DNA of 64,000 nt. It comes from Escherichia coli. Its GTDB lineage: Bacteria; Pseudomonadota; Gammaproteobacteria; Enterobacterales; Enterobacteriaceae. The position numbers and the translations under genes were made by a program. How positions within the stretch are numbered: position 1 is the first letter of the stretch; each line of letters begins with the position of its first letter. Where the stretch lies: the NCBI RefSeq assembly GCF_013122565.1, contig NZ_CP053258.1; one strand, written 5' to 3'. A model generated the notes under the pieces. The model searched no databases and was not told the DNA's origin. It saw nothing but the letters and a program-made list of their open reading frames with translations. Positions 495 through 38,296 of the stretch are shown one piece after another.

Positions 495-2638
495 TGGAAA
501 TGGCATCAGCGTTTACTCTTAATGTTCGTCTGGACAACATTGCCGTTATCACCATTGATGTTCCTGGTGAGAAAATGAATACCCTGAAGGCGGAATTTGC
601 CTCGCAGGTGCGCGCCATTATTAAGCAACTCCGTGAAAACAAAGAGTTGCGCGGCGTGGTGTTTGTCTCCGCTAAACCGGACAACTTTATCGCCGGAGCA
701 GACATCAACATGATCGGCAACTGCAAAACGGCGCAAGAAGCGGAAGCTCTGGCGCGGCAGGGCCAACAGTTGATGGCGGAGATTCATGCTTTGCCCATTC
801 CGGTTATTGCCGCTATTCATGGCGCTTGCCTGGGCGGTGGGCTGGAGCTGGCGCTGGCGTGCCACGGTCGCGTTTGTACTGACGATCCTAAAACGGTGCT
901 CGGTTTGCCTGAAGTACAACTTGGATTGTTACCCGGTTCAGGCGGCACCCAGCGTTTACCGCGTCTGATAGGCGTCAGTACAGCATTAGAGATGATTCTC
1001 ACCGGAAAACAATTTCGGGCGAAACAGGCATTAAAGCTGGGGCTGGTGGATGACGTCGTTCCGCACTCCATTTTGCTGGAAGCCGCTGTTGAGCTGGTAA
1101 AGCAGGATCGTCCATCTTCCCGCCCTCTACCTGTACGCGAGCGTATTCTGGCGGGGCCGTTAGGTCGTGCGTTGCTGTTCAAAATGGTCGGCAAGAAAAC
1201 AGAACACAAAACTCAAGGTAACTATCCGGCGACAGAACGCATCCTGGAGGTTGTCGAAACGGGATTAGCGCAGGGCACCAGCAGTGGCTATGACGCTGAA
1301 GCACGAGCGTTTGGCGAACTGGCGATGACGCCGCAATCGCAGGCTCTGCGTAGTATCTTTTTTGCCAGTACGGACGTGAAGAAAGATCCCGGCAGTGATG
1401 CGCCGCCTGCGCCATTAAACAGCGTGGGGATTTTAGGTGGTGGCTTGATGGGCGGCGGTATTGCTTATGTCACTGCCTGTAAAGCGGGGCTTCCGGTCAG
1501 AATTAAAGATATCAACCCGCAGGGCATAAATCATGCGCTGAAGTACAGTTGGGATCAGCTGGAGGGCAAAGTTCGCCGTCGTCATCTCAAAGCCAGCGAA
1601 CGTGACAAACAGCTGGCATTAATCTCCGGAACGACGGACTATCGCGGCTTTGCCCATCGAGATCTGATTATTGAAGCGGTGTTTGAAAATCTCGCATTAA
1701 AACAACAAATGGTGGCGGAAGTTGAGCAAAATTGCGCCGCTCATACCATCTTTGCTTCGAATACGTCATCTCTACCGATTGGTGATATCGCCGCTCACGC
1801 CGCGCGACCTGAGCAAGTTATTGGCCTGCATTTCTTCAGTCCGGTGGAAAAAATGCCGCTGGTGGAGATTATTCCTCATGCGGGTACATCGGCGAAAACA
1901 ATTGCCACTACGGTAAAACTGGCGAAAAAACAGGGCAAAACGCCAATTGTCGTGCGTGACAAAGCCGGGTTTTACGTCAATCGCATCTTAGCGCCTTACA
2001 TTAATGAAGCTATCCGCATGCTGACCGAAGGTGAACGGGTAGAGCATATTGATGCCGCTCTAGTGAAATTTGGTTTTCCGGTAGGTCCAATCCAACTTTT
2101 GGATGAGGTAGGAATCGACACCGGGACTAAAATTATTCCTGTACTGGAAGCCGCTTATGGAGAACGTTTTAGCGCGCCTGCAAATGTTGTTTCTTCAATT
2201 TTGAACGACGATCGCAAAGGCAGAAAAAATGGTCGGGGTTTCTATCTTTATGGTCAGAAAGGGCGTAAAAGCAAAAAACAGGTCGATCCCGCCATTTACC
2301 CGCTCATTGGCGCACAAGGGCAGGGGCGACTCTCCGCACCGCAGGTTGTTGAACGGTGTGTGATGTTGATGCTGAATGAAGCAGTACGTTGTGTTGACGA
2401 GCAGGTTATCCGTAGCGTGCGTGACGGGGATATTGGTGCGGTATTTGGCATTGGTTTTCCGCCATTTCTCGGTGGACCGTTCCGCTATATCGATTCTCTC
2501 GGCGCGGGCGAAGTGGTTGCAATAATGCAACGACTGGCCACGCAGTATGGTTCCCGTTTTACCCCTTGTGAGCGTTTAGTCGAGATGGGCGCACGTGGGG
2601 AAAGTTTTTGGAAAACAACTGCAACTGACCTGCAATAA
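494..2638 (+). CDS. fadJ: Fatty-acid oxidation complex alpha subunit (enoyl-CoA hydratase / 3-hydroxyacyl-CoA dehydrogenase)
   Basis: 714-aa ORF with crotonase fold and NAD-binding [13 protein letters not shown] motif; 1-nt overlap with fadI stop. Confidence 0.95.
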
Positions 2639-2840
2639 GAAGGTCAAAGCTATATGAATCCGCGCTGAATGGCGGAGTGATGGTCAAAATGTAAACGCAT
2701 ATTGACTATACTTACGCCATTGAGGTAAAAAACAGCGTTTCATTCGGTGAATGGATAAGGCACAATGCCGGCCACCGTTTTCTTTCTCTGGTTTCAGATG
2801 AAAGAAAACGGGCGAATCTGGTTAACAAAAGCGGTGCAAT

Positions 2841-3326
2841 ATGCAAGTTTTTATCATGCGTCACGGCGACGCAGCCCTCGATGCCGCCAGTGATTCGGTT
2901 CGTCCTCTGACTACTAACGGTTGTGACGAATCTCGCCTGATGGCGAACTGGCTGAAAGGTCAAAAAGTGGAAATCGAACGCGTTCTGGTGAGCCCGTTCC
3001 TGCGAGCCGAGCAAACACTGGAAGAAGTAGGGGATTGTCTGAACCTGCCTTCCAGTGCAGAAGTTCTGCCGGAGTTAACGCCCTGCGGCGATGTTGGTCT
3101 GGTCAGTGCCTATTTACAGGCGTTGACCAATGAAGGTGTTGCTTCGGTACTGGTGATCTCCCACTTACCGTTAGTCGGGTATCTGGTTGCCGAGTTATGT
3201 CCGGGCGAAACGCCGCCTATGTTTACCACCTCAGCCATTGCCAGCGTAACGCTTGATGAAAGCGGAAACGGCACATTCAACTGGCAGATGAGCCCGTGTA
3301 ATCTGAAGATGGCAAAAGCTATCTGA
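2841..3326 (+). CDS. sixA: Phosphohistidine phosphatase SixA
   Basis: 161-aa ORF starting MQVFIMRHGDA (RHG histidine phosphatase motif). Confidence 0.9.
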   Translation: MQVFIMRHGDAALDAASDSVRPLTTNGCDESRLMANWLKGQKVEIERVLVSPFLRAEQTLEEVGDCLNLPSSAEVLPELTPCGDVGLVSAYLQALTNEGVASVLVISHLPLVGYLVAELCPGETPPMFTTSAIASVTLDESGNGTFNWQMSPCNLKMAKAI

Positions 3327-3977
3327 AGCTATAGAAATATGCCCGGTGAGATCACGTCATCGGGCATCTCCTTTCGTTCCTCTTGGCTGTATTCACACAT
3401 TTTCCCATTGATTAGGCGATTATTTTTGTGGAGCTATATTTCATATTTATATGAATGGCAGGTTTTTCCGGGAATGACATATCGTGTGGCGGAGGGTTAT
3501 TTAAGGAATGCAATGACATTTATTAGAGGAGCCTGTAACAATAGGCACACGTAAATAAAATTAAAAAGGAGTTGTGTCTTGATTTATATTATATATTGTT
3601 TTTCATTAATTATCCGCAGAAAAAAACAGAAATCGCATTTTTTTGTTGTTGCTTTCTTATTACCCACTTTGTAATGTGGCCCATATGAATTTAACCGTTA
3701 TGCAATAATTACGTTCTGTATTCATAGGGAATTCCTCAAAAAACATTATCCATAGTGATATTTTAAGTTTTACTTAAAATCATTGTTAGTAAAACTAATT
3801 TGAATTCACCGTTCAAAACTCCCACTATCGCCGCACACCAAAGAATATCATCTTATGCAATCTTTTGCGGGAAGCAATGACGCATATTCGATGGTCATCT
3901 CTAAGCCGCTCACTTCAATATTAATCTGAGGTTTTCCGGCGCTTATAATTTAATTATTTATGGTTTAAGGACAAATA

Positions 3978-4544
3978 ATGAGTAAGTTTGTTAAAACTGC
4001 TATTGCAGCGGTGATGGTAATGGGTGCGTTCGCGTCAACTTCTTCCATCGCTGCCGGTAACAACGGTACCGCGCGTTTCTACGGCACCATCGAAGATTCC
4101 CCGTGCTCCATCGTGCCTGACGACCACAAACTGGAAGTTGATATGGGCGATATCGGTTCTGAAACACTGAAAGGCAGTAAATCAACCACCCCGAAAGAGT
4201 TCCAGATCCGCCTGCAGGACTGCGTGTTTGATACTCAGGCCAAGGCTTCGACTGTCTTCACCGGCACCATCTATACTGCGGTCGCCAACAGCAACAACTA
4301 CACCATTTTCAGCACCGAAACCGGTATGCCATTTGAGCATGTCAGCCTGGCGATTGGTGATGAACATGGCGCGGCATACAAAAGCGGTATGCCTATCGAA
4401 CAGGCGCTTACTATAGATTCCAGCACCACGAAAGGTAAACCTAACCAGACGCTGAACTTTAAAGCATGGCTGGTGGGTGAAAGTGAAATGCCGACCCTGG
4501 GGGCATTTGAAGCTAACACCACGTTCCAGATCACTTATCTCTGA
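3978..4544 (+). CDS. yfcV: Fimbrial major subunit of the Yfc chaperone-usher system
   Basis: 188-aa ORF with signal peptide and fimbrial-subunit features; first gene of a 7-gene chaperone-usher cluster; preceded by a 650-bp AT-rich region. Confidence 0.85.
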   Translation: MSKFVKTAIAAVMVMGAFASTSSIAAGNNGTARFYGTIEDSPCSIVPDDHKLEVDMGDIGSETLKGSKSTTPKEFQIRLQDCVFDTQAKASTVFTGTIYTAVANSNNYTIFSTETGMPFEHVSLAIGDEHGAAYKSGMPIEQALTIDSSTTKGKPNQTLNFKAWLVGESEMPTLGAFEANTTFQITYL

Positions 4545-4551
4545 TGTTTCA

Positions 4552-4581
4552 CCCCATGGCGGCAACGTCATGGGGTTTTTT
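4552..4581 (+). terminator. Intra-operon hairpin plus T-tract between yfcV and the usher gene
   Basis: CCCCATG-gcggcaacgt-CATGGGG followed by TTTTTT, just after the yfcV stop. Confidence 0.7.
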
Positions 4582-4613
4582 AATTGATTCTGACGAAATT
4601 ATAATAATCACGG

Positions 4614-7277
4614 ATGGATACGTGTATGCCAGACCATTCTCTTTTCCGTTTACGGGTGCTTCCCTGGTATATTGCGCTGGCAATATCCGGAAGCTATGCC
4701 AGTGCCTGGGCTGATGATGATATTCAGTTTGATTCCCGTTTTCTGGAATTAAAAGGCGACGCAAAAGTCGATCTGAAACGTTTTTCCAGTCAGGGCTATG
4801 TCGAGCCGGGTAAATATAATTTACAGGTTCAGGTAAATAAGCAGCCGCTCCCGGATGAGTACGATATTTTCTGGTATGCCTCTGAAAAAGATGCCGGTAA
4901 AAGTTATGCCTGCCTGACGCCCACGCTGCTCGCCCAGTTTGGTCTGAAAGAGGAGATTGTAAAAAATCTGCAATGGTCCCGCAACGGCGAATGCCTCGCG
5001 CCAGGTCAGCTGGAAGGGACAGAGATTAAGGCTGATTTAAGCCAGTCCGCGTTATTAATCTCCCTGCCACAGGCCTATCTGGAATACAGCGATATGGACT
5101 GGGACCCGCCTTCCCGCTGGGACGATGGTATTCCCGGCCTGATTGCTGACTACAGCATTAACGCCCAGACCCGCCACGATGAGCAGAGCGGCGATGACAG
5201 TAACGACATCAGCGGTAACGGCACGGTAGGGGTAAACCTCGGCCCGTGGCGTCTGCGCGCCGACTGGCAGACGGACTACCAGCATACCCGCAGCGACGAT
5301 GACGATGAATACAGCGACAGTGACGGCAACAGCACACAAAGAAACTGGGAGTGGAGCCGCTACTACGCCTGGCGCGCCCTGCCGTCATTAAAAGCCAAAC
5401 TTGCGCTCGGCGAAGATTACCTCAACTCCGATATTTTCGACGGCTTTAACTATGTCGGCGGCAGCGTCAGCACTGAAGACCAGATGTTACCGCCAAATAT
5501 GCGCGGCTACGCCCCCGATATTTCCGGGGTGGCGCACACCACGGCGAAAGTGACCGTCAGCCAGATGGGCCGCGTCATTTACGAAACCCAGGTTCCGGCG
5601 GGGCCGTTCCGCATTCAGGATTTGGGCGATTCCATCTCCGGTACGCTGCATGTGCGTATTGAAGAGCAGAACGGTCAGGTGCAGGAATATGATATCAGCA
5701 CCGCGTCGATGCCGTTCCTGACCCGTCAGGGCCAGGTGCGCTATAAAGTGATGATGGGCCGCCCGCAGGAGTGGGGGCACGATATTGCCGGCGGATTTTT
5801 CTCCGGCGGTGAAGCCTCCTGGGGGATTGCCAACGGCTGGTCGCTCTACGGCGGCGCGCTGGCGGATGAAAACTATCAGTCGGCGGCCATTGGCGTCGGG
5901 CGTGACCTGTCAATTCTTGGTGCGATGGCCTTTGACGTCACGCACTCACATGTCCGCCTGGATGACAACACTGCCTACGACAATCGTACCCTGGACGGTA
6001 ACTCGTTCCGCGTGAGCTATGCCAAAGACTTTGACGAACTCGACAGCCGCGTTACCTTCGCCGGATACCGCTTCTCTGAAAAAAACTTCATGACCATGAG
6101 CGAATATCTGGATGCGAAAGATGCGGACATGGTGCGCTCCGGCAACGATAAAGAGATGTACACGGTTACCTACAACCAGAACTTCCGGGATGCCGCGGTT
6201 TCTGTCTATCTCAACTACACCCACCGCACCTACTGGGACCGGCCGGAACAGACCAACTACAACGTGATGATGTCCCACTATTTCAATATGGGCAGCATCC
6301 GCAACATGAGCGTGTCCCTGACCGGTTACCGCTACGAATACGACAAAAGCACCGACAAAGGGATGTATATCTCGCTGAGTATGCCGTGGGGCGACAGCAG
6401 TACCGTCAGCTATAACGGCAACTACGGCAGCGGCTCAGACTCCAGCCAGGTCGGTTATTTCAGCCGTATCGACGATGCCTCGCATTACCAGATTAACGTC
6501 GGCACCAGCGAAAACCACGGCAGCGTGGATGGCTACTACAGCCATGACGGCTCGCTGGCGCAGGTGGATTTAAGTGCCAACTACCATGAAGGCGAGTATC
6601 AGTCTGCCGGGATTTCACTGCAGGGCGGCGCGACGCTGACCGCGCACGGCGGGGCGCTGCACCGCACGCAATCGCCCGGCGGGACACGTCTGCTGATTGA
6701 CGCTGACGGCGTGTCCGGCGTGCCGGTGGAAGGTAACGGTTCGCCGGTTTACACCAACATGTTTGGTAAAGCGGTCGTGGCGGATGTCAACAACTACTAC
6801 CGTAACCAGGCCTATATCGACCTGACTAAACTGCCGGAAAACGCCGAAGCCACCCAGTCGGTGGTGCAGGCCACGCTGACCGAGGGCGCGATTGGCTACC
6901 GCCAGTTTGCAGTGATCAGCGGGCAGAAAGCGATGGCGGTACTGCGCCTGAGCGACGGCAGCCATCCGCCGTTTGGTGCGGAAGTGAAAAACAGCGACGA
7001 GCAGCAGGTGGGGCTGGTTGACGATGACGGCAACGTCTATCTGGCCGGGGTGAAACCGGGCGAGCGGATGACGGTGTCGTGGAACGGTGAGACACACTGT
7101 GACATCGCGCTGCCGGACCCGTTACCGGCCGATCTGTTCAACGGCCTGTTGCTGCCCTGCCAGAACCGGGGTGCCGTCGCGCCTGCCACCTCGCCGGACG
7201 TCAAACCGGTGATTCAGGAGCAGACGCAGCAGGTGACACCAACGGAACCCCCGACTTCAATTTCAGTAAACCAGTAA
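4614..7277 (+). CDS. yfcU: Outer-membrane fimbrial usher, intact (true start may be the Met at 4626)
   Basis: 887-aa uninterrupted ORF with usher-like N-terminal signal and C-terminal domain. Confidence 0.85.
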   Translation: MDTCMPDHSLFRLRVLPWYIALAISGSYASAWADDDIQFDSRFLELKGDAKVDLKRFSSQGYVEPGKYNLQVQVNKQPLPDEYDIFWYASEKDAGKSYACLTPTLLAQFGLKEEIVKNLQWSRNGECLAPGQLEGTEIKADLSQSALLISLPQAYLEYSDMDWDPPSRWDDGIPGLIADYSINAQTRHDEQSGDDSNDISGNGTVGVNLGPWRLRADWQTDYQHTRSDDDDEYSDSDGNSTQRNWEWSRYYAWRALPSLKAKLALGEDYLNSDIFDGFNYVGGSVSTEDQMLPPNMRGYAPDISGVAHTTAKVTVSQMGRVIYETQVPAGPFRIQDLGDSISGTLHVRIEEQNGQVQEYDISTASMPFLTRQGQVRYKVMMGRPQEWGHDIAGGFFSGGEASWGIANGWSLYGGALADENYQSAAIGVGRDLSILGAMAFDVTHSHVRLDDNTAYDNRTLDGNSFRVSYAKDFDELDSRVTFAGYRFSEKNFMTMSEYLDAKDADMVRSGNDKEMYTVTYNQNFRDAAVSVYLNYTHRTYWDRPEQTNYNVMMSHYFNMGSIRNMSVSLTGYRYEYDKSTDKGMYISLSMPWGDSSTVSYNGNYGSGSDSSQVGYFSRIDDASHYQINVGTSENHGSVDGYYSHDGSLAQVDLSANYHEGEYQSAGISLQGGATLTAHGGALHRTQSPGGTRLLIDADGVSGVPVEGNGSPVYTNMFGKAVVADVNNYYRNQAYIDLTKLPENAEATQSVVQATLTEGAIGYRQFAVISGQKAMAVLRLSDGSHPPFGAEVKNSDEQQVGLVDDDGNVYLAGVKPGERMTVSWNGETHCDIALPDPLPADLFNGLLLPCQNRGAVAPATSPDVKPVIQEQTQQVTPTEPPTSISVNQ

Positions 7278-7296
7278 CGTGATTAAGGAATGATCC

Positions 7297-8040
7297 ATGT
7301 TTAATCTGACTAACACTGCAAAAACCGTTATCCCTGCGCTGGCGCTGCTGGCCAGTTTCTCCAGCCACGCCTCGGTGACACCCGACAGGACGCGGCTGGT
7401 GTTTAACGAAAGCGACAAATCCATCAGCGTCACGCTGCGCAATAATGACCCCAAACTGCCCTATCTGGCGCAGAGCTGGATAGAGGATGCAAAGGGCAAC
7501 AAAATCAGCTCGCCGCTGGCGGTGCTGCCGCCGGTACAGCGCATCGATGCGATGATGAACGGCCAGGTGAAGGTGCAGGGGCTGCCGGATATCAACAAAC
7601 TGCCAGCCGACCGCGAGAGCGTGTTCTACTTTAACGTGCGCGAGATCCCGCCGAAATCAAACAAACCGAACACGCTGCAGATTGCGCTGCAGACGCGCAT
7701 CAAGCTGTTCTGGCGACCGAAGGCGCTGGAAAACGTCAGCATGAAAAACCCGTGGCAGCACAAGGTGACGCTCACCCGCAACGGCCAGGATTTTACCGTC
7801 AATAACCCGACGCCGTACTACGTGATCATCAGCAACGCCAGCGCGAAAAAAGGCGGCAACCCGCCGGCGGGATTCACACCGCTGATGCTGGAGCCGAAAA
7901 CCTCCGCCCCGCTGAATGCGAAGATGGACAGCGTGCCGGTGCTGACCTATATCAACGACTACGGCGCGCGGATGCCGCTGTACTTCAAATGCACCGCCAA
8001 CAACTGCCAGGTGGATGAAGAGCAGAGCCGCAAAGGCTGA
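7297..8040 (+). CDS. yfcS: Periplasmic fimbrial chaperone (PapD-like)
   Basis: 247-aa ORF with signal peptide and pilus-chaperone N-terminal motif (RLVFNESDKSISVTLRNN). Confidence 0.85.
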   Translation: MFNLTNTAKTVIPALALLASFSSHASVTPDRTRLVFNESDKSISVTLRNNDPKLPYLAQSWIEDAKGNKISSPLAVLPPVQRIDAMMNGQVKVQGLPDINKLPADRESVFYFNVREIPPKSNKPNTLQIALQTRIKLFWRPKALENVSMKNPWQHKVTLTRNGQDFTVNNPTPYYVIISNASAKKGGNPPAGFTPLMLEPKTSAPLNAKMDSVPVLTYINDYGARMPLYFKCTANNCQVDEEQSRKG

Positions 8041-8055
8041 TGCCGGGAGGGACTT

Positions 8056-8553
8056 ATGAGTCACAAGTTTTTAGCGGGGGCGGGGTTGCTGGTATTCAGT
8101 CTCTGTAGTTTCCCGGTTATGGCTGGCAGTAAAACCGTAGAGTTAACTCTGCGCGTGTTAGTGGATGCGCCACCACCGTGCTCCGTGAAGGGCAGTGCGG
8201 TGGAATTTGGCAATGTGACGATCAACAAGATCGATGGCACGAATTACCGACAGGATGCGAAATACACCCTGAGCTGCGGCAATAAAGCCAGCGACGATTT
8301 ACAGATGCAGCTCAAAGGGAATACCGCCGTTATCAACGGAGAAACGGTCCTCAGTACGGATATTGCCGGCCTGGGTGTGCGGATAGAAAACGCTGCCGAT
8401 AATTCCCTGTTTGCGGTAGGTGAAAATACCTGGACGCCTTTTAACTATAACACTCAGCCACAGCTGAAAGCGGTGCTGGTAAAACAGAGCGGAGTGCAGT
8501 TAACGCCGTCGGAATTTAACGCCACTCTGACCATGGTGGTGGATTACCAATGA
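8056..8553 (+). CDS. yfcR: Fimbrial-like minor subunit
   Basis: 165-aa secreted protein ending in a typical fimbrial C-terminal strand (VVDYQ); overlaps next gene. Confidence 0.75.
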   Translation: MSHKFLAGAGLLVFSLCSFPVMAGSKTVELTLRVLVDAPPPCSVKGSAVEFGNVTINKIDGTNYRQDAKYTLSCGNKASDDLQMQLKGNTAVINGETVLSTDIAGLGVRIENAADNSLFAVGENTWTPFNYNTQPQLKAVLVKQSGVQLTPSEFNATLTMVVDYQ

Positions 8554-9038
8554 AAAGACTCACGCTGATTTTACTGTGCACCTGCTGGGGCACAGCCCAG
8601 GCCGCCGACGAGGACATCACATTTCATGGCACCCTGGCATCGCCGCCCGCCTGTAGCATCAGCGGCGGGAAAACCATTGAAGTGGAGTTTCGCGATCTCA
8701 TTATCGACAGCATTAACGGGAATTATGGCCGGCAGGAAGTTGTATATGAGCTTAGCTGCGAATCCGATGCCCGCGATCCTGGCTGGCAAATGTCCCTGAC
8801 GTGGACCGGCACGCCCACCAGCTACAACGATGCCGCCATCGAGACGGATGTGCCGGGCTTCGGGATTGAGCTTCAGCATGACGGACAGCGTTTTCTGCTC
8901 AACACGCCGCTAAACATTGACGCCACGGATTTCAGCAAGAAGCCGAAGCTGGAGGCCGTACCGGTAAAAGCGGCTGATGCGGTGCTGAGTGACACGACTT
9001 TTTCTGCTTACGCAACTTTACGGGTGGATTACCAATGA
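8550..9038 (+). CDS. yfcQ: Fimbrial-like minor subunit
   Basis: 162-aa ORF with signal peptide; C-terminal RVDYQ; 4-nt overlaps with both neighbours. Confidence 0.75.
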   Translation: MKRLTLILLCTCWGTAQAADEDITFHGTLASPPACSISGGKTIEVEFRDLIIDSINGNYGRQEVVYELSCESDARDPGWQMSLTWTGTPTSYNDAAIETDVPGFGIELQHDGQRFLLNTPLNIDATDFSKKPKLEAVPVKAADAVLSDTTFSAYATLRVDYQ

Positions 9039-9574
9039 AAATAGCACGCACTTATACGCCGGCTTACGCGCTGTTCGCGGGCCTGCTGCTGACCGCCAGC
9101 ACAGACACTTTCGCCATGGACAACAACCTGCATTTTTACGGCAACCTGCTGAGTAAATCCTGCACGCTGGTGGTGGACGGTACCAACCTGGCAGAAATTC
9201 ATTTCCCCACCGTCAGCAACCGGGATTTGATGGTCGCCGGGCAGTCCGCGCATCTGCCGGTTGTGTTTAAGCTGAAAGACTGCAAAGGGCCTGCGGGATA
9301 CAACGTCAAAGTCACGCTGAGCGGCACTGAAGACAGCGGTCAGCCGGGATTTCTGGCAATCGATGACACCTCCACCGCGCAGGGGGTGGGGATAGGGATG
9401 GAAACGCTTGACGGCAAGCGGGTGGATATTAACAACACCACCGGTGCGACCTTCGCGCTTATCAACGGTAACAATGACATTAATTTCAGGGCCTGGATCC
9501 AGGCGAAAAGCAGTCGGGATGTGACGATCGGTGAATTTACCGCCTCTTTAACTGCGACATTTGAGTACATTTAA
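9035..9574 (+). CDS. yfcP: Fimbrial-like subunit
   Basis: 179-aa ORF with signal peptide and fimbrial C-terminus (TATFEYI). Confidence 0.75.
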   Translation: MKIARTYTPAYALFAGLLLTASTDTFAMDNNLHFYGNLLSKSCTLVVDGTNLAEIHFPTVSNRDLMVAGQSAHLPVVFKLKDCKGPAGYNVKVTLSGTEDSGQPGFLAIDDTSTAQGVGIGMETLDGKRVDINNTTGATFALINGNNDINFRAWIQAKSSRDVTIGEFTASLTATFEYI

Positions 9575-10394
9575 AATGAAAATACTACGATGGTTGTTCG
9601 CTCTGGTCATGCTTATGTCTGCGACAGAAGCTCTGGCTGCCGGGCATAGCATCAAGCTTTACTACGGAATTAGCCATGATCTGCAGGCTATCACGGCTTT
9701 TAGCCTGAAAATCATGATGCCATCAGGGGTCTACGATGGAGAATATAAGAGTAGTAACTTTGCACACATAGGGGATTATCTGCAAAATATAAGCTGGAAT
9801 GGTCCGCCTCCTGCACCTTCAGTAAAGATGATAGACTACAAGCAAAAGCTCGATGAATCATTATGCCCGGGGCTACCTTCTGGGTGGCTCTGTGGGTCTC
9901 TTGAATTTGAAATTATTGTTTCTGCTGATATTGAATCTTTCTTTTCTTGCCCTTGGTTGGTTGTTATGAGTGATACCGTGACCTCTAGAGGTGTGGCTTA
10001 TAAGGGGCCGGACGGTTATGCCACACTTTGTCAAACTGTTTCTGTTCAACCTTATGATGTTTCATGGAATGAGAATTATGTCAGTAAGTCTAAACTGCTC
10101 ACTCTGCAATCGACGGGCGGTGTGGTTGAGAAAACGCTTTCAACGTATTTAATGAAAGATGGCAAATTGTGCGACAGTTCGCAGATGAATGAAGCCGGTG
10201 GTTACTGCCGCTGGGTTGCGCAGATGATAACTTTTACTGCAACGGGATGTGATAAGGCGGAAGTCACTGTCACGCCAAATCGACATCCTATAACGGACAA
10301 ACAATTACACGATATGGTCGTGCATGTTGATACCAGTAGTATGCAGCCAATCGATTCTACTTGCCGGTTCCAGTACATACTGAATGAGTTGTAG
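9561..10394 (+). CDS. yfcO: Putative fimbrial tip adhesin-like protein
   Basis: 277-aa cysteine-rich secreted ORF, last gene of the yfc cluster. Confidence 0.7.
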   Translation: MSTFKMKILRWLFALVMLMSATEALAAGHSIKLYYGISHDLQAITAFSLKIMMPSGVYDGEYKSSNFAHIGDYLQNISWNGPPPAPSVKMIDYKQKLDESLCPGLPSGWLCGSLEFEIIVSADIESFFSCPWLVVMSDTVTSRGVAYKGPDGYATLCQTVSVQPYDVSWNENYVSKSKLLTLQSTGGVVEKTLSTYLMKDGKLCDSSQMNEAGGYCRWVAQMITFTATGCDKAEVTVTPNRHPITDKQLHDMVVHVDTSSMQPIDSTCRFQYILNEL

Positions 10395-10464
10395 CCGTTA
10401 GAAACACTCAGGCAGGGGCATTCGCCCCTGCCATTACCCGCTCATGGCGCAACACTCTCCCCCC

Positions 10465-11016
10465 TCAGGGCAACTCCGGTGGCAGCCACTCTTCCACTTC
10501 AATCAACACCAACAACGCCGCATCACCGCCATACTCTTTTGGTGCCTGGTGAAACGCCATCACATGCGGATGTTGTGCCAGCCACAGCGGTGTTTGTTGC
10601 TTCAAAATATGCTTCCCGTGACCATGCATCACGCAGGCGCAAAACACATGTTCGCGGCGACAGGCGGCAATCAACGCGCCCAGTTCCTGCTTGGCCTGCA
10701 GCTGCGTCAGACCGTGTAAATCCAAAAACAATTCCGGCGAATAATCGCCACGGCGCAACTTCTTCGCCTCAAAATGACTCACATCCGGGCGAACATATTT
10801 CACCGGACCTTCGGTATTTAATAACGGCTGAAACTCATCGGAGAAATAATGGCTGGCATCAGCCTGCTCCTGAATCAAGCGTTTCACCGGTACTTCGCTG
10901 ATTTTCTTACGCTGTGGTCGGTGGACAATCGTGTCCTGCTTAATCTTGCGAGTCCCCGCCATCAACTGGCGAAACAGCGCCTGGTCCTCCTCGCTTAGTG
11001 TTGTTTTCTTTTTCAT
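10465..11016 (-). CDS. smrB: Ribosome rescue endonuclease SmrB (Smr domain)
   Basis: 183-aa [21 protein letters not shown]... with C-terminal Smr domain; divergent from prmB. Confidence 0.9.
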
Positions 11017-11181
11017 TTATGTATCTCTATTTCTAATTTTCCTACAGTTTACCCGACTCGTAGCACAATCGATCGTTTTAAACGTATTTTTCCTCACTCA
11101 CCGCGCGTGAATGCTGATTTATCGTCATCTTCATGGCAAACTAGCCGCCGAAATTATTGCGATCATGCCCTGGAGGAATAC

Positions 11182-12114
11182 GTGGATAAAATTTTCGTTG
11201 ATGAAGCAGTAAATGAGCTGCAAACCATTCAGGACATGTTGCGCTGGTCGGTGAGCCGCTTCAGCGCGGCAAATATCTGGTACGGTCACGGCACCGATAA
11301 CCCGTGGGATGAAGCCGTACAGCTGGTGTTGCCTTCGCTCTACCTGCCGCTGGATATCCCGGAAGATATGCGCACCGCGCGTCTGACCTCCAGCGAAAAA
11401 CACCGTATTGTTGAACGCGTGATCCGCCGCGTCAACGAACGCATTCCGGTGGCTTACCTGACCAACAAAGCGTGGTTCTGCGGCCATGAATTTTACGTCG
11501 ATGAACGTGTGCTGGTGCCGCGCTCGCCGATTGGTGAACTGATCAACAATAAATTTGCCGGACTTATCAGCAAGCAACCGCAGCATATTTTAGATATGTG
11601 TACTGGTAGCGGTTGCATCGCCATTGCCTGTGCTTATGCCTTCCCGGATGCGGAAGTCGACGCGGTGGATATCTCTCCCGACGCGCTGGCGGTTGCTGAA
11701 CAGAACATCGAAGAACACGGTCTGATCCACAACGTCATTCCGATTCGTTCCGATCTGTTCCGCGACTTGCCGAAAGTGCAGTACGACCTGATTGTCACTA
11801 ACCCGCCGTATGTCGATGCGGAAGATATGTCCGACCTGCCAAACGAATACCGCCACGAGCCGGAACTGGGCCTGGCATCTGGCACTGACGGCCTGAAACT
11901 GACGCGTCGCATTCTCGGTAACGCGGCAGATTACCTTGCTGATGATGGCGTGTTGATTTGTGAAGTCGGCAACAGCATGGTACATCTTATGGAACAATAT
12001 CCGGATGTTCCGTTCACCTGGCTGGAGTTTGATAACGGCGGCGATGGTGTGTTTATGCTCACCAAAGAGCAGCTTATTGCCGCACGAGAACATTTCGCGA
12101 TTTATAAAGATTAA
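11182..12114 (+). CDS. prmB: Ribosomal protein L3 glutamine N5-methyltransferase
   Basis: Match begins [10 protein letters not shown] (GTG start at 11182 preceded by GGAGG); NPPY methyltransferase motif present; the ORF track's upstream ATG at 11107 is probably not the real start. Confidence 0.9.
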
Positions 12115-12148
12115 GTAAACACGCAAACACAACAATAACGGAGCCGTG

Positions 12149-13234
12149 ATGGCTGGAAACACAATTGGACAACTCTTTCGCGTAACCACCTTCGGCGAAT
12201 CGCACGGGCTGGCGCTCGGCTGCATCGTCGATGGTGTTCCGCCAGGCATTCCGCTGACGGAAGCGGACCTGCAACATGACCTCGACCGTCGTCGCCCTGG
12301 GACATCGCGCTATACCACCCAGCGTCGTGAGCCGGATCAGGTCAAAATACTCTCCGGTGTTTTTGAAGGTGTTACTACCGGTACCAGCATCGGTTTGTTG
12401 ATCGAAAATACCGACCAGCGTTCTCAGGATTATAGTGCGATTAAGGACGTTTTCCGTCCGGGTCATGCCGATTACACTTACGAACAAAAATACGGTCTGC
12501 GCGATTATCGCGGCGGCGGACGTTCTTCCGCACGCGAAACCGCCATGCGCGTGGCGGCGGGGGCGATTGCCAAAAAATATCTCGCTGAGAAATTTGGCAT
12601 CGAAATTCGCGGCTGCCTGACCCAGATGGGTGACATTCCGCTGGAAATCAAAGACTGGTCGCTGGTTGAACAAAATCCGTTCTTCTGCCCGGACCCGGAC
12701 AAAATCGACGCGTTAGATGAACTGATGCGCGCGCTGAAAAAAGAGGGCGACTCTATTGGCGCGAAAGTCACCGTTGTTGCCAGTGGCGTCCCCGCCGGAC
12801 TTGGCGAGCCGGTCTTTGACCGTCTGGATGCCGACATCGCCCATGCGCTGATGAGCATCAACGCGGTGAAAGGCGTGGAAATTGGCGACGGTTTTGACGT
12901 GGTGGCGCTGCGCGGCAGCCAGAATCGCGACGAAATCACTAAAGACGGTTTCCAGAGCAACCATGCGGGCGGCATTCTTGGCGGTATCAGCAGCGGGCAG
13001 CAAATCATTGCTCATATGGCGCTGAAACCGACCTCCAGTATTACCGTGCCGGGGCGTACCATTAACCGCTTTGGCGAAGAAGTTGAGATGATCACCAAAG
13101 GCCGTCACGATCCTTGTGTCGGGATCCGCGCGGTGCCGATCGCTGAAGCGATGCTGGCGATCGTTTTAATGGATCACCTGCTACGGCAGCGGGCGCAAAA
13201 TGCCGATGTGAAGACTGATATTCCACGCTGGTAA
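12149..13234 (+). CDS. aroC: Chorismate synthase
   Basis: [20 protein letters not shown]... 361 aa; second Met of the ORF used. Confidence 0.95.
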
Positions 13235-13237
13235 AAA

Positions 13238-14062
13238 ATGAACAAAACCGCGATTGCGCTGCTGGCTCTGCTTGCCAGTAGCGCCAGCCTGGCAGCGACG
13301 CCGTGGCAAAAAATAACCCAACCTGTGCCGGGTAGCGCACAATCGATAGGCAGTTTTTCTAATGGTTGTATCGTCGGCGCTGACACGTTGCCGATACAGT
13401 CCGAACATTATCAGGTCATGCGTACCGATCAGCGTCGCTATTTCGGTCACCCGGACCTGGTGATGTTTATCCAGCGTCTGAGTAGCCAGGTGAGCAATCT
13501 GGGCATGGGTACGGTGCTGATTGGCGATATGGGGATGCCCGCTGGTGGGCGTTTCAACGGCGGTCACGCCAGCCACCAGACCGGACTGGATGTCGATATC
13601 TTTCTGCAACTGCCGAAAACACGCTGGACCTCCGCACAACTCTTGCGCCCGCAAGCACTGGACTTAGTATCCCGCGACGGTAAACACGTTGTCTCCACGC
13701 TGTGGAAGCCAGAAATTTTCAGCTTGATCAAACTCGCCGCCCAGGACAAAGACGTCACACGGATTTTTGTTAATCCGGCGATTAAACAACAACTTTGCCT
13801 TGATGCGGGTACCGATCGCGACTGGTTGCGCAAAGTGCGACCCTGGTTCCAGCATCGTGCGCATATGCATGTACGATTACGTTGTCCTGCCGATAGTCTG
13901 GAGTGTGAAGATCAACCTTTACCGCCACCAGGCGATGGTTGCGGGGCAGAACTGCAAAGCTGGTTTGAACCTCCAAAACCGGGAACAACAAAGCCTGAGA
14001 AGAAGACACCGCCTCCGTTGCCGCCTTCCTGCCAGGCGCTACTGGATGAGCACGTGATCTAA
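13238..14062 (+). CDS. mepA: Penicillin-insensitive murein DD-endopeptidase
   Basis: 274-aa secreted ORF immediately downstream of aroC. Confidence 0.9.
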
Positions 14063-14871
14063 TGGAAACGTTTAATAGCCTGTTTATGGTTTCCCCGCTG
14101 TTGCTGGGAGTTCTCTTTTTTGTCGCCATGCTGGCGGGATTTATTGACTCGATTGCCGGTGGCGGTGGGTTACTCACCATTCCGGCATTGATGGCAGCGG
14201 GGATGTCTCCCGCTAATGCGCTGGCAACCAATAAACTGCAAGCCTGCGGCGGCTCTATTTCCGCCACTATCTACTTTATTCGCCGCAAAGTGGTTAGTTT
14301 AAGCGATCAGAAACTCAATATCGCCATGACCTTTGTCGGCTCAATGAGCGGCGCACTGTTGGTACAGTACGTTCAGGCTGATGTCTTACGGCAGATTTTG
14401 CCCATTCTGGTAATTTGTATCGGCCTCTATTTCTTGCTGATGCCAAAGCTGGGTGAAGAAGATCGCCAGCGCCGGATGTACGGTTTACCCTTCGCGTTAA
14501 TTGCCGGTGGCTGCGTCGGTTTTTATGACGGATTCTTTGGTCCGGCAGCCGGATCGTTTTACGCGCTGGCCTTTGTTACGCTGTGCGGATTCAACCTCGC
14601 CAAAGCCACGGCTCACGCCAAATTACTCAACGCAACGTCAAATATCGGCGGTTTACTGCTGTTTATTCTCGGTGGCAAAGTGATTTGGGCGACGGGCTTT
14701 GTCATGCTGGTGGGGCAGTTCCTCGGCGCGCGCATGGGTTCACGACTGGTGTTGAGCAAAGGACAAAAGCTGATCCGCCCGATGATTGTTATCGTCTCGG
14801 CGGTGATGAGTGCCAAATTACTTTACGATAGCCACGGACAGGAGATCCTCCACTGGTTGGGGATGAACTAA
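14062..14871 (+). CDS. yfcA: TauE/SafE-family inner-membrane protein
   Basis: 269-aa polytopic membrane ORF; TAATG overlap with mepA stop. Confidence 0.85.
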   Translation: METFNSLFMVSPLLLGVLFFVAMLAGFIDSIAGGGGLLTIPALMAAGMSPANALATNKLQACGGSISATIYFIRRKVVSLSDQKLNIAMTFVGSMSGALLVQYVQADVLRQILPILVICIGLYFLLMPKLGEEDRQRRMYGLPFALIAGGCVGFYDGFFGPAAGSFYALAFVTLCGFNLAKATAHAKLLNATSNIGGLLLFILGGKVIWATGFVMLVGQFLGARMGSRLVLSKGQKLIRPMIVIVSAVMSAKLLYDSHGQEILHWLGMN

Positions 14872-15419
14872 TGAACAGTACACACCACTACGAGCAGTTG
14901 ATTGAAATTTTTAATAGCTGCTTTGCCGATGATTTTAATACCCGTCTGATTAAAGGCGACGACGAACCGATCTATCTTCCTGCTGATGCGGAAGTACCGT
15001 ATAACCGAATCGTCTTTGCTCATGGCTTTTATGCCAGCGCAATTCATGAGATTTCGCACTGGTGTATTGCCGGGAAAGCGCGCCGTGAGCTGGTTGATTT
15101 CGGCTACTGGTATTGCCCGGACGGACGCGATGCCCAGACGCAAAGCCAGTTTGAAGATGTTGAAGTGAAGCCGCAGGCGTTCGACTGGTTGTTCTGCGTG
15201 GCGGCGGGATATCCGTTTAACGTCAGTTGCGACAATCTGGAAGGCGACTTCGAACCGGACCGCGTGGTGTTTCAACGGCGAGTACATGCGCAGGTGATGG
15301 ATTATCTGACAAATGGCATTCCGGAACGCCCGGCACGTTTCATTAAAGCACTACAAAATTATTATCACACGCCGGAACTTACGGCGGAACAGTTCCCGTG
15401 GCCGGAAGCGCTCAACTGA
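14871..15419 (+). CDS. epmC: Elongation factor P hydroxylase
   Basis: 182-aa ORF MNSTHHYEQLIEIFNSCF...; start overlaps yfcA stop. Confidence 0.85.
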   Translation: MNSTHHYEQLIEIFNSCFADDFNTRLIKGDDEPIYLPADAEVPYNRIVFAHGFYASAIHEISHWCIAGKARRELVDFGYWYCPDGRDAQTQSQFEDVEVKPQAFDWLFCVAAGYPFNVSCDNLEGDFEPDRVVFQRRVHAQVMDYLTNGIPERPARFIKALQNYYHTPELTAEQFPWPEALN

Positions 15420-15452
15420 AGCCAGCGCCACGTTTTACAATGAGGAAAGAAG

Positions 15453-15731
15453 ATGATCGCGGAGTTTGAATCACGCATTCTGGCATTAATCGACGGTATG
15501 GTTGACCATGCCAGTGATGATGAGTTGTTTGCCAGTGGGTATTTGCGTGGCCACCTGACATTAGCCATCGCAGAACTGGAAAGTGGTGATGACCACTCCG
15601 CTCAGGCGGTGCATACGACCGTTAGCCAGAGTCTGGAAAAAGCCATTGGTGCTGGTGAATTGTCGCCGCGTGACCAGGCGCTGGTGACCGATATGTGGGA
15701 AAACCTGTTTCAGCAGGCGTCACAGCAGTAA
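15453..15731 (+). CDS. yfcL: Small conserved protein YfcL
   Basis: 92-aa [19 protein letters not shown]...; last core gene before the IS insertion. Confidence 0.8.
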
Positions 15732-15739
15732 GTTGCGGT

Positions 15740-15789
<50 letters not shown>

Positions 15790-15887
15790 CACGTCACACG
15801 TAGATACTGTTATGGCCTGCAAGTTTTTTTCTACCCCGGTTTCCCGGATTGCAGGCATGCCAGATACAGCGCCGTCAGGCGCTGTTG

Positions 15888-17111
<1,224 letters not shown>

Positions 17112-37405: not shown

Positions 37406-38296
37406 ATGACAATATCGACAACTTCCACGCCGCATGATGCGGTATTTAAATCTTTTTTACGCCATCCAGACACCGCGCGGGATTTTATTGATATTCATCT
37501 TCCCGCGCCGCTGCGCAAACTGTGTGATTTAACAACGCTTAAACTGGAACCAAACAGTTTTATTGATGAAGACCTGCGGCAATATTATTCCGACCTCTTG
37601 TGGTCTGTGAAAACGCAGGAGGGAGCGGGTTATATTTATGTAGTGATAGAGCACCAAAGTAAGCCGGAAGAATTAATGGCTTTTCGCATGATGCGCTATT
37701 CCATTGCGGCGATGCAAAACCATCTTGATGCAGGCTATAAAGAGCTTCCATTGGTGATCCCGATGCTGTTTTATCATGGTTGCAGAAGCCCTTATCCATA
37801 TTCACTCTGCTGGCTTGATGAATTTGCCGAGCCTGCGATTGCCCGCAAAATTTATTCATCGGCTTTTCCGCTGGTGGATATTACCGTGGTGCCGGATGAC
37901 GAGATTATGCAACATCGCAAAATGGCGCTGTTGGAGTTAATTCAGAAACATATTCGTCAGCGCGATCTGTTGGGATTAGTCGACCAAATTGTTTCGCTGC
38001 TAGTTACAGGGAACACTAATGACAGACAGCTAAAAGCCCTGTTTAATTACGTATTACAAACGGGGGATGCCCAGCGTTTCCGTGCATTTATTGGTGAGAT
38101 AGCGGAACGCGCACCACAAGAAAAGGAGAAACTGATGACCATTGCTGACAGATTACGTGAAGAAGGCGCAATGCAGGGCAAACACGAAGAAGCCCTGCGT
38201 ATTGCTCAGGAGATGCTGGAAAAAGGATTTGACTACGAAGTCATCCTGACGCTGACCCGACTTTCGCCAGACGATCTTATCGCGCAAAGCCACTAA
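37406..38296 (+). CDS. rpnB: Recombination-promoting nuclease RpnB (YhgA / transposase_31-like)
   Basis: 296-aa [21 protein letters not shown]...; recognised as YfcI/RpnB. Confidence 0.8.

Follow-up and report, generated by a model that had tools for sequence, protein, structure and literature searches.

Does an intact yfc operon, in a species whose K-12 reference strain carries a broken usher gene, mark a strain as unusual, or does the distinctive feature of such a locus lie elsewhere? We addressed this question in a stretch of 64,000 nucleotides (nt) of Escherichia coli DNA (contig NZ_CP053258.1 of assembly GCF_013122565.1; hereafter the window, to which coordinates refer unless another locus is named), in which the operon occupies positions 3978-10394. 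A preliminary description of this DNA had drawn attention to the intact usher and to yfcV, a marker gene of extraintestinal pathogenic E. coli (ExPEC). We conclude that the region is very probably an intact chaperone-usher fimbrial operon of the pi type (the class of cluster described for this site in PMC3032704), of the kind called Yfc in E. coli and Stf in Salmonella, lying at its canonical site and represented by a rare mosaic allele. The system is of a known kind and is already annotated; the allele is rare and uncharacterised.

The operon consists of seven uninterrupted open reading frames (ORFs), all on the plus strand, encoding in order yfcV, the usher, the chaperone, yfcR, yfcQ, yfcP and yfcO (Table 1). 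The flanking genes, fadJ and sixA on the 5' side and smrB, prmB and aroC on the 3' side, are those of the K-12 MG1655 yfc position, and the order V-U-S-R-Q-P-O is found here at the sixA-smrB (yfcN) locus. The major subunit, the chaperone and the four minor or tip subunits are all intact, as first described. The genes had also been called tightly overlapping, which holds for the distal ones (4-base-pair (bp) overlaps of yfcR with yfcQ and of yfcQ with yfcP, and 1 nt from yfcP to yfcO) and not for those upstream, where gaps of 81 nt (yfcV to usher, holding a conserved hairpin), 19 nt (usher to chaperone) and 15 nt (chaperone to yfcR) separate them. Two start sites differ between the mechanical ORFs and the deposited proteins: the usher frame is open from 4614 (887 amino acids) whereas the deposited record and relatives start at 4626 (883), and the yfcO frame opens at a TTG at 9561 whereas the deposited 272-residue protein starts at an ATG at 9576. 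The exact seven proteins are already in GenBank and RefSeq (QJU27573-QJU27579; WP_171460553-59) under the generic names "fimbrial protein", "usher", "chaperone" and "fimbrial adhesin YfcO", and were found on only 2-3 contigs. The GC content of the operon is 54.3%, compared with 49.5% in K-12.

The operon had been treated as that of K-12 with an unbroken usher; instead, its allele is of a different, rare class, with about 79% nucleotide identity to K-12. Overall identity was 78.6-78.8%, short of the high identity that would make it a K-12-type allele, and the drop to approximately 70-85% was confined to positions 3327-10000. Identity was 96.9% across fadJ-sixA and 96-100% across smrB-prmB, but 66-88% per 200-nt bin from yfcV to yfcP, and only within the 3' half of yfcO did it climb back to about 90%. 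Synonymous divergence (dS) from K-12 was likewise 0.85-1.6 in the operon versus 0.03-0.24 in the flanks. The host is an ordinary E. coli, its best match in the species reaching 98.4% identity over 24 kilobases of core genome. We considered another Escherichia species as the source of the divergence and rejected it, given flanks 96.6-100% identical to K-12 and the core-genome match. A search of 5,426 complete E. coli genomes found a best operon match of 92-93% in 13 of them, from varied animal, water and human sources, and none closer. Next came a class at 82.8%; matches of the K-12 class stood at 78.6% and those of the CFT073 class at about 75%. We refer to the nearest class by its member MB53.

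Identity in the flanks is itself patchy: prmB, aroC and smrB are 99.2%, 94.8% and 96.6% identical to K-12, respectively, and smrB is 91.7% identical to CFT073. Such patchiness suggests recombination around the yfc locus, with tracts reaching into adjacent core genes (smrB, prmB and aroC at 10465-13234; fadJ at 494-2638). Strain SBF45 has prmB and aroC 99.9% identical to those of the window despite a different yfc class.

Comparing the modules of 11 alleles separately (yfcV, usher and chaperone, here the 5' module; yfcR, yfcQ and yfcP; and YfcO) produced three different pictures of relatedness. The 5' module placed the window with MB53 and an unclassified Pseudocitrobacter, K-12 with SBF45 and MOD1, and P. 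vendiensis with E. coli E69, leaving CFT073 alone. For yfcR/Q/P, the window grouped with MB53, K-12 with MOD1, the unclassified Pseudocitrobacter with E. whittamii, and P. vendiensis with E69, and SBF45 stood alone. YfcO yielded a third, different partition. These discordant groupings indicate that the modules reassort independently, and on the evidence of these alignments the operon joins, as a mosaic, at least three modules of different histories: the 5' module, yfcR/Q/P and the N-terminal domain of YfcO. Putative breakpoints lie near 3800, 8000, 9600 and 10000. As a side observation, SBF45 (locus L002, 5448-11877) combines a K-12-type yfcV-usher-chaperone (96% amino acid identity) with minor subunits and an adhesin only 52-53% and 48% identical to those of K-12; the best counterpart of its YfcO is the P. 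vendiensis protein (69%).

One of these groupings crosses a genus boundary. The 90% identity cluster of the usher includes a protein from the unclassified Pseudocitrobacter (GCA_965231605.1, locus L009), which carries a complete seven-gene yfc-type operon in the same order between sspB and nanR (L009 6352-12770), at the spot where K-12 has dcuD. A second yfc-type operon adjoins nanR in P. vendiensis (locus L013, 168-6617; L013 ends short of the region upstream of yfcV). The genes flanking the first operon are 77-84% identical to K-12 at the nucleotide level, with dS of 0.9-1.9 (nanA, nanR, nanT, sspB, zapE and yhcB), confirming a different genus. Its yfcV, usher and chaperone, however, are 89-91% identical to those of the window in nucleotides and 90-94% in amino acids (dS 0.32-0.39), so that in the 5' module only MB53, among the E. 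coli classes, lies nearer the window. The common stretch begins at about 3800, approximately 180 nt upstream of yfcV, and ends at about 8000, with the chaperone gene. Beyond it the likeness falls away: yfcR, yfcQ and yfcP are 67-68% identical in nucleotides and 65-68% in amino acids (dS 1.3-2.2) and are instead 91% identical to those of E. whittamii, dS in yfcO is 1.1, and the distal upstream region is unrelated to that of the window. At least the 5' module therefore appears, from these comparisons, to have moved between Escherichia and Pseudocitrobacter after the genera split. A search for the donor among species-representative genomes yielded just 5 loci, none of them above 85% usher identity, and the transfer may have run in either direction.

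The same observations bear on another account, in which the alleles are an ancient polymorphism kept at sixA-smrB by balancing or diversifying selection, without recent transfer in from another genus, and the likeness to Pseudocitrobacter reflects one old export from Escherichia or a mislabelled genome. In its favour, the site of the operon is common to all Escherichia species sampled, E. coli harbours several deeply diverged classes side by side, and a 2011 report (PMC3032704) had already remarked on different pi-type seven-gene clusters at sixA-yfcN in E. coli W and O157. Mislabelling is nevertheless contradicted by the Pseudocitrobacter flanks, which are too divergent for an Escherichia genome, and by the position of the operon beside nanR in both Pseudocitrobacter genomes. 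A single export fares no better. The two Pseudocitrobacter operons are 83%, 63% and 46% identical to each other in amino acids across the three modules, and each is nearer an Escherichia allele (window/MB53 for one, E69 for the other); in the 5' module each has its own close E. coli counterpart, at 93-94% and 92%, compared with 83% to the other, which implies more than one exchange. Taken as a whole we consider this account unlikely, although ancient polymorphism and transfer can both have occurred, and only the direction differs between it and an exchange of modules between the genera.

Nowhere in the operon is divergence greater than in the third module, the N-terminal domain of YfcO, and this holds even relative to MB53. 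In this domain, nucleotide identity to MB53 is 76-80% with a ratio of nonsynonymous to synonymous divergence (dN/dS) of 0.62, compared with 94-97% and 0.12 in the C-terminal domain. The exact protein (QJU27579.1, named "fimbrial adhesin YfcO" in RefSeq) has a 90% identity cluster of 2 members within a very polymorphic family comprising dozens of such clusters at 42-85% identity to it. All 8 cysteines are nonetheless invariant across 53 YfcO homologs, most of the conserved positions lying in the C-terminal half. An AlphaFold2 model (predicted local distance difference test score, pLDDT, of 83) folds the protein into two beta-sandwich domains at residues of about 23-163 and 183-269; a sequence search of the PDB with a YfcO family profile returned nothing at E <= 1. 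The Salmonella homolog StfH has been shown to act as an adhesin in allele-swap experiments, with its variation mostly in the N-terminal half (PMC5343171), and by analogy with those experiments YfcO is a putative two-domain tip adhesin. Together with the exchange of modules described above, this leads us to propose, tentatively, that the Yfc/Stf-type operon is a three-cassette system, comprising the rod and assembly machinery, the tip subunits and the receptor-binding domain of the adhesin, whose cassettes reassort and have crossed between Escherichia and Pseudocitrobacter despite occupying different sites, and that the YfcO N-terminal domain of the window might set a receptor or host range unlike those of the K-12 and uropathogenic E. 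coli (UPEC) types.

The encoded proteins retain what is expected of a fimbrial system. All three usher Pfam domains are present at full length, PapC_N at residues 34-180 (model positions 1-146 of 146), Usher at 198-761 (3-549 of 549) and PapC_C at 772-828, with no internal stop, and the protein scores 1805.7 bits against the NCBIfam subfamily model PRK15284 (cutoff 972). The chaperone, pilin and DUF2544 Pfam domains were recorded on a Logan contig 100% identical to window positions 6576-13394, the chaperone pair (PF00345 and PF02753) being read on identical sequence (locus L007) and PF00419 being recorded for YfcR, YfcQ and YfcP. YfcV lies outside the Pfam-annotated loci, and its identification as a pilin comes from NCBIfam fimbrial-subunit matches, the best of which, StfA, falls below its cutoff. 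The four pilins keep a signal-peptide-like N-terminus, a cysteine pair and a penultimate tyrosine (C-termini ...TYL, ...DYQ, ...DYQ and ...EYI); the pair is Cys43-Cys82 in YfcV, with the penultimate tyrosine present, and Cys42-Cys74 in YfcR, which ends in ...VDYQ. The best NCBIfam matches were StfA for YfcV, StfD for the chaperone, StfE for YfcR, StfF for YfcQ and StfG for YfcP, the last also with a weaker match to FimF, and no NCBIfam model matched YfcO. Each Stf equivalog cutoff was missed (score/cutoff: StfA 118.3/267, StfD 323.9/447, StfE 165.5/264, StfF 134.5/253 and StfG 148.6/253). Judged by these scores, the window proteins are relatives of the Salmonella Stf proteins and not their equivalogs.

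Six of the seven genes have dN/dS of 0.04-0.18 relative to MB53, the nearest allele, over dS of 0.16-0.63, indicating long-term purifying selection; the chaperone has the value 0.04, and yfcO stands at 0.48. Relative to K-12, five genes have dN/dS of 0.08-0.17 over near-saturated dS and yfcO 0.29, with yfcQ not computable. Purifying selection across all seven genes fits a potentially functional fimbria. It also bears on the proposition that the frames are intact but the operon is dead or decaying, a recently silenced relic whose genes have not yet been hit. Chaperone-usher operons of this kind are cryptic in culture, and our promoter scan gave nothing convincing: 7 matches versus 7.1 expected, with the sigma-70-like candidates at 3513-3542 and 3561-3590 no commoner than chance. 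A relic, however, would not be expected to show such constraint against both MB53 and K-12 (yfcO being higher in each comparison), nor to have kept every invariant cysteine and pilin motif, nor to preserve the pairing of the intercistronic hairpin through compensatory changes. We judge this proposition improbable.

That hairpin was predicted after yfcV in 6 of 6 alleles folded. Across 11 alleles, 95.4% of cells were paired, with compensatory double changes in 5 of the 11 pairs; none of 500 shuffles reached the observed pairing, and slid controls were 39-47% paired. An attenuator or stabiliser after the major subunit gene is usual in fimbrial operons, pap and fim offering an analogy. The hairpin is accordingly a candidate for a partial terminator or attenuator, or for an mRNA-stabilising stem-loop, either of which would raise the ratio of major subunit to machinery. 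An Rfam scan of 2600-11200 gave no family at the gathering threshold.

Upstream of yfcV, 650 nt are AT-rich, with a GC content of 0.316 in 3501-4000 versus about 0.5 in the flanks. Positions 3327-3800 align only to the MB53-class allele (86-96%) and not to K-12 or Pseudocitrobacter, and from about 3800 the region also matches Pseudocitrobacter, at 86%. A 71-residue ORF at 3339-3554 (plus strand) within this gap is without support as a gene and is probably spurious. Cryptic chaperone-usher operons of commensal E. coli are reported to be H-NS-repressed in a passage of PMC3559732 that cites Korea 2010. The AT-rich upstream region, read with this literature, suggests silencing by H-NS, and the operon is thus probably cryptic in laboratory culture.

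From what is known of the family we infer an assembly order, the adhesin role, the attenuator function, H-NS silencing and fimbriation itself. After export by Sec, each subunit would bind the PapD-like chaperone YfcS, and the usher would then polymerise the subunits in a fixed order through donor-strand exchange. YfcO would emerge first as a two-domain tip adhesin, its N-terminal domain binding the receptor, followed by the tip subunits YfcR and YfcQ, the FimF-like adaptor YfcP and many copies of the rod subunit YfcV. This order is in keeping with a published AlphaFold tip-to-rod model in which YfcQ is distal to YfcP, YfcP aligns with the FimF and PapK adaptors and YfcV is the rod subunit (PMC12122975). 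The hairpin would attenuate readthrough or stabilise the yfcV transcript, so as to leave the major subunit in excess, and silencing by H-NS would keep the operon cryptic in laboratory culture.

We then return to the usher, the feature for which the locus was first singled out. It is uninterrupted, with an annotated length of 883 rather than 887 residues, and K-12 does carry a disrupted pseudogene, as first described: RefSeq annotates the K-12 gene as pseudogene yfcU, b4661. Alignment, as the preliminary description had recommended, located the lesion. In tblastn the window usher aligns end to end with K-12 yfcU in frame 1 at 84% identity, and the K-12 gene translates in a single frame, interrupted solely by a TAG at codon 579. 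We also considered a frameshift and a yfcT/yfcU split, and rejected both in view of this one nonsense codon in frame 0. The codon at this site is TAT in the window and MB53 and TAC in SBF45 and CFT073, all encoding tyrosine; the residue, Tyr581 in the window, falls in the Usher barrel domain, so the K-12 product would be without about one third of the barrel and the C-terminal domains. Korea 2010 reportedly observed no Yfc fimbriae with MG1655.

Intactness, however, does not distinguish this strain. Ushers are intact in MB53, SBF45, CFT073, EA13 and X14-3, the last two of which carry K-12-type alleles, and among the strains sampled the stop occurs only in K-12 and in DLI.5a, which shares the "internal stop". 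The K-12 nonsense lesion is restricted to certain lineages. Wurpel 2013 described Yfc as core-associated and yfc as the only cluster intact across all genomes examined (PMC3559732). An intact yfc operon is the normal state in E. coli. Separately, many genomes with K-12-class alleles have IS1 inserted in the yfc operon, and VE-T9, of the MB53 class, has ISApl1; inactivation by insertion sequence (IS) elements is common in some lineages, besides the K-12 nonsense codon.

Nor does yfcV mark this strain as an extraintestinal pathogen. The gene is one of four UPEC predictors, but the authors of VirulenceFinder excluded variants less than 85% identical to the primer-bearing alleles, thereby avoiding the cryptic K-12-type gene (PMC7512150). 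Window yfcV is 69.5% identical to that of CFT073 in nucleotides, well below this threshold; in amino acids YfcV is 94.7% identical to MB53, 72.9% to K-12 and 67.7% to CFT073. The marker primers of the Spurbeck predictor set, first validated on CFT073 yfcV (0 mismatches, an amplicon of about 292 bp), mismatch their best sites in window yfcV at 7 and 6 positions. The marker is allele-specific, and by primer mismatch and identity alike the strain would score yfcV-negative. That the locus is essentially the K-12 operon with an unbroken usher and a yfcV that flags ExPEC or UPEC is thus highly improbable, for all that it shares site and gene order with K-12, has an intact usher where K-12 has a pseudogene and carries one of the four predictor genes (PMC7512150), because the operon matches K-12 at no more than about 79% of nucleotides and approaches saturation in dS, yfcV is far from the marker allele and misses its primers, and an intact usher is the usual state.

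Table 1. Features of the yfc operon region, in window coordinates.
Feature	Position	Strand	Remarks
sixA-yfcV intergenic region	3327-3977	+	AT-rich; presumed promoter/regulatory region
yfcV, major (rod) fimbrial subunit, 188 aa (amino acids)	3978-4544	+	intact ORF; exact protein QJU27573.1
Intercistronic hairpin then T-run	4551-4576	+	11-bp stem, 7 GC pairs, plus TTTTTAATTG
Outer-membrane usher, yfcU ortholog, 883 aa	4626-7277	+	exact protein QJU27574.1 / WP_171460554.1
PapD-like periplasmic chaperone, yfcS ortholog, 247 aa	7297-8040	+	PapD_N + PapD_C
yfcR, minor/tip fimbrial subunit, 165 aa	8056-8553	+	PF00419 Fimbrial
yfcQ, minor/tip fibrillum subunit, 162 aa, rare variant	8550-9038	+	PF00419
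yfcP, FimF-like tip-to-rod adaptor subunit, 179 aa	9035-9574	+	PF00419
yfcO, StfH/YfcO-family (DUF2544) putative two-domain tip adhesin, 272 aa	9576-10394	+	PF11245
Weak terminator-like stem-loop, low confidence	10410-10427	-	consensus scan only: 5 pairs, 3 GC; between convergent yfcO and smrB

Elsewhere in the window we observed two ORFs related to mobile elements. The first, of 326 residues at 15908-16888 (minus strand), lies between yfcL and mnmC and exceeds the cutoff of the NCBIfam model "IS110 family RNA-guided transposase" (252.6 bits; cutoff 140). Compared with SBF45 and CFT073 it is inserted sequence. In most E. coli genomes the alignment covers only 96% of 10465-16000 and ends near 15803, and up to 28 matching places in some genomes suggest a multicopy element. 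The second, of 296 residues at 37406-38296 (plus strand) between hisP and yfcH, is an Rpn-family recombination-promoting nuclease/putative transposase; it passes the TIGR01784 cutoff, falls below those of the RpnA and ISNCY equivalogs and is absent from the same interval in CFT073. It is probably just the K-12-type gene usual at that position.

An intact Yfc alone means little, being a core-associated and normally intact E. coli fimbria whose exact proteins here are already deposited. The interest of the locus, modest and mainly for specialists, is that of a rare mosaic allele with an inter-genus connection: it offers a clear natural instance of allelic replacement by cassettes, in which at least one module is shared across genera and variation is concentrated in the N-terminal domain of the adhesin. 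In commensal and environmental E. coli, such variation could be part of the reason for host or niche tropism, a role that StfH alleles play in Salmonella Newport. In practical terms, "yfcV present" in a genome cannot be read as an ExPEC signal without allele typing, and the full-length yfcV of the window would escape the marker.

Among known systems, the closest is the MB53 class (MB53, OW1E2, E41, PT62 and others), which occupies the same site with all genes intact and is 92-93% identical, including the upstream region; it differs in yfcQ (84%; YfcQ of the window has a 90% identity cluster of 2 members), in YfcO overall (83% in amino acids) and in the N-terminal domain noted above. The K-12 Yfc operon (yfcV-yfcU-yfcS-yfcR-yfcQ-yfcP-yfcO, b2339-b2332) shares site, gene order, gene sizes and domain content, and the C-terminal half of its YfcO is 89-94% identical to that of the window in nucleotides, but its proteins are 73-85% identical, its upstream regulatory region is unalignable with that of the window and its usher bears the TAG. 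CFT073, the UPEC strain from whose operon the yfcV predictor gene comes, has the same seven-gene architecture at the same site with an intact usher, but only 58-77% nucleotide identity per gene and 56.8% amino acid identity in YfcO. E. coli W and O157:H7 carry at sixA-yfcN, instead of a K-12-type yfc, the different seven-gene pi-type cluster "eso/epo" (ECs3222-ECs3216; PMC3032704); in O157 strains the match to the window stood at about 80% and extended no further than the first 58% of the query, which makes theirs yet another allele class. A further counterpart is Salmonella enterica Stf (StfA, usher, StfD, StfE, StfF, StfG and StfH), which provides the best NCBIfam match of the window components in the same order, apart from YfcO, although only the window usher passes a curated cutoff. 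Wurpel 2013 does not include Yfc among the fimbrial types listed as sharing a locus with Salmonella, whereas yfc has also been described as the stf ortholog, with StfH variation concentrated N-terminally (PMC5343171), as it is in the YfcO of the window.

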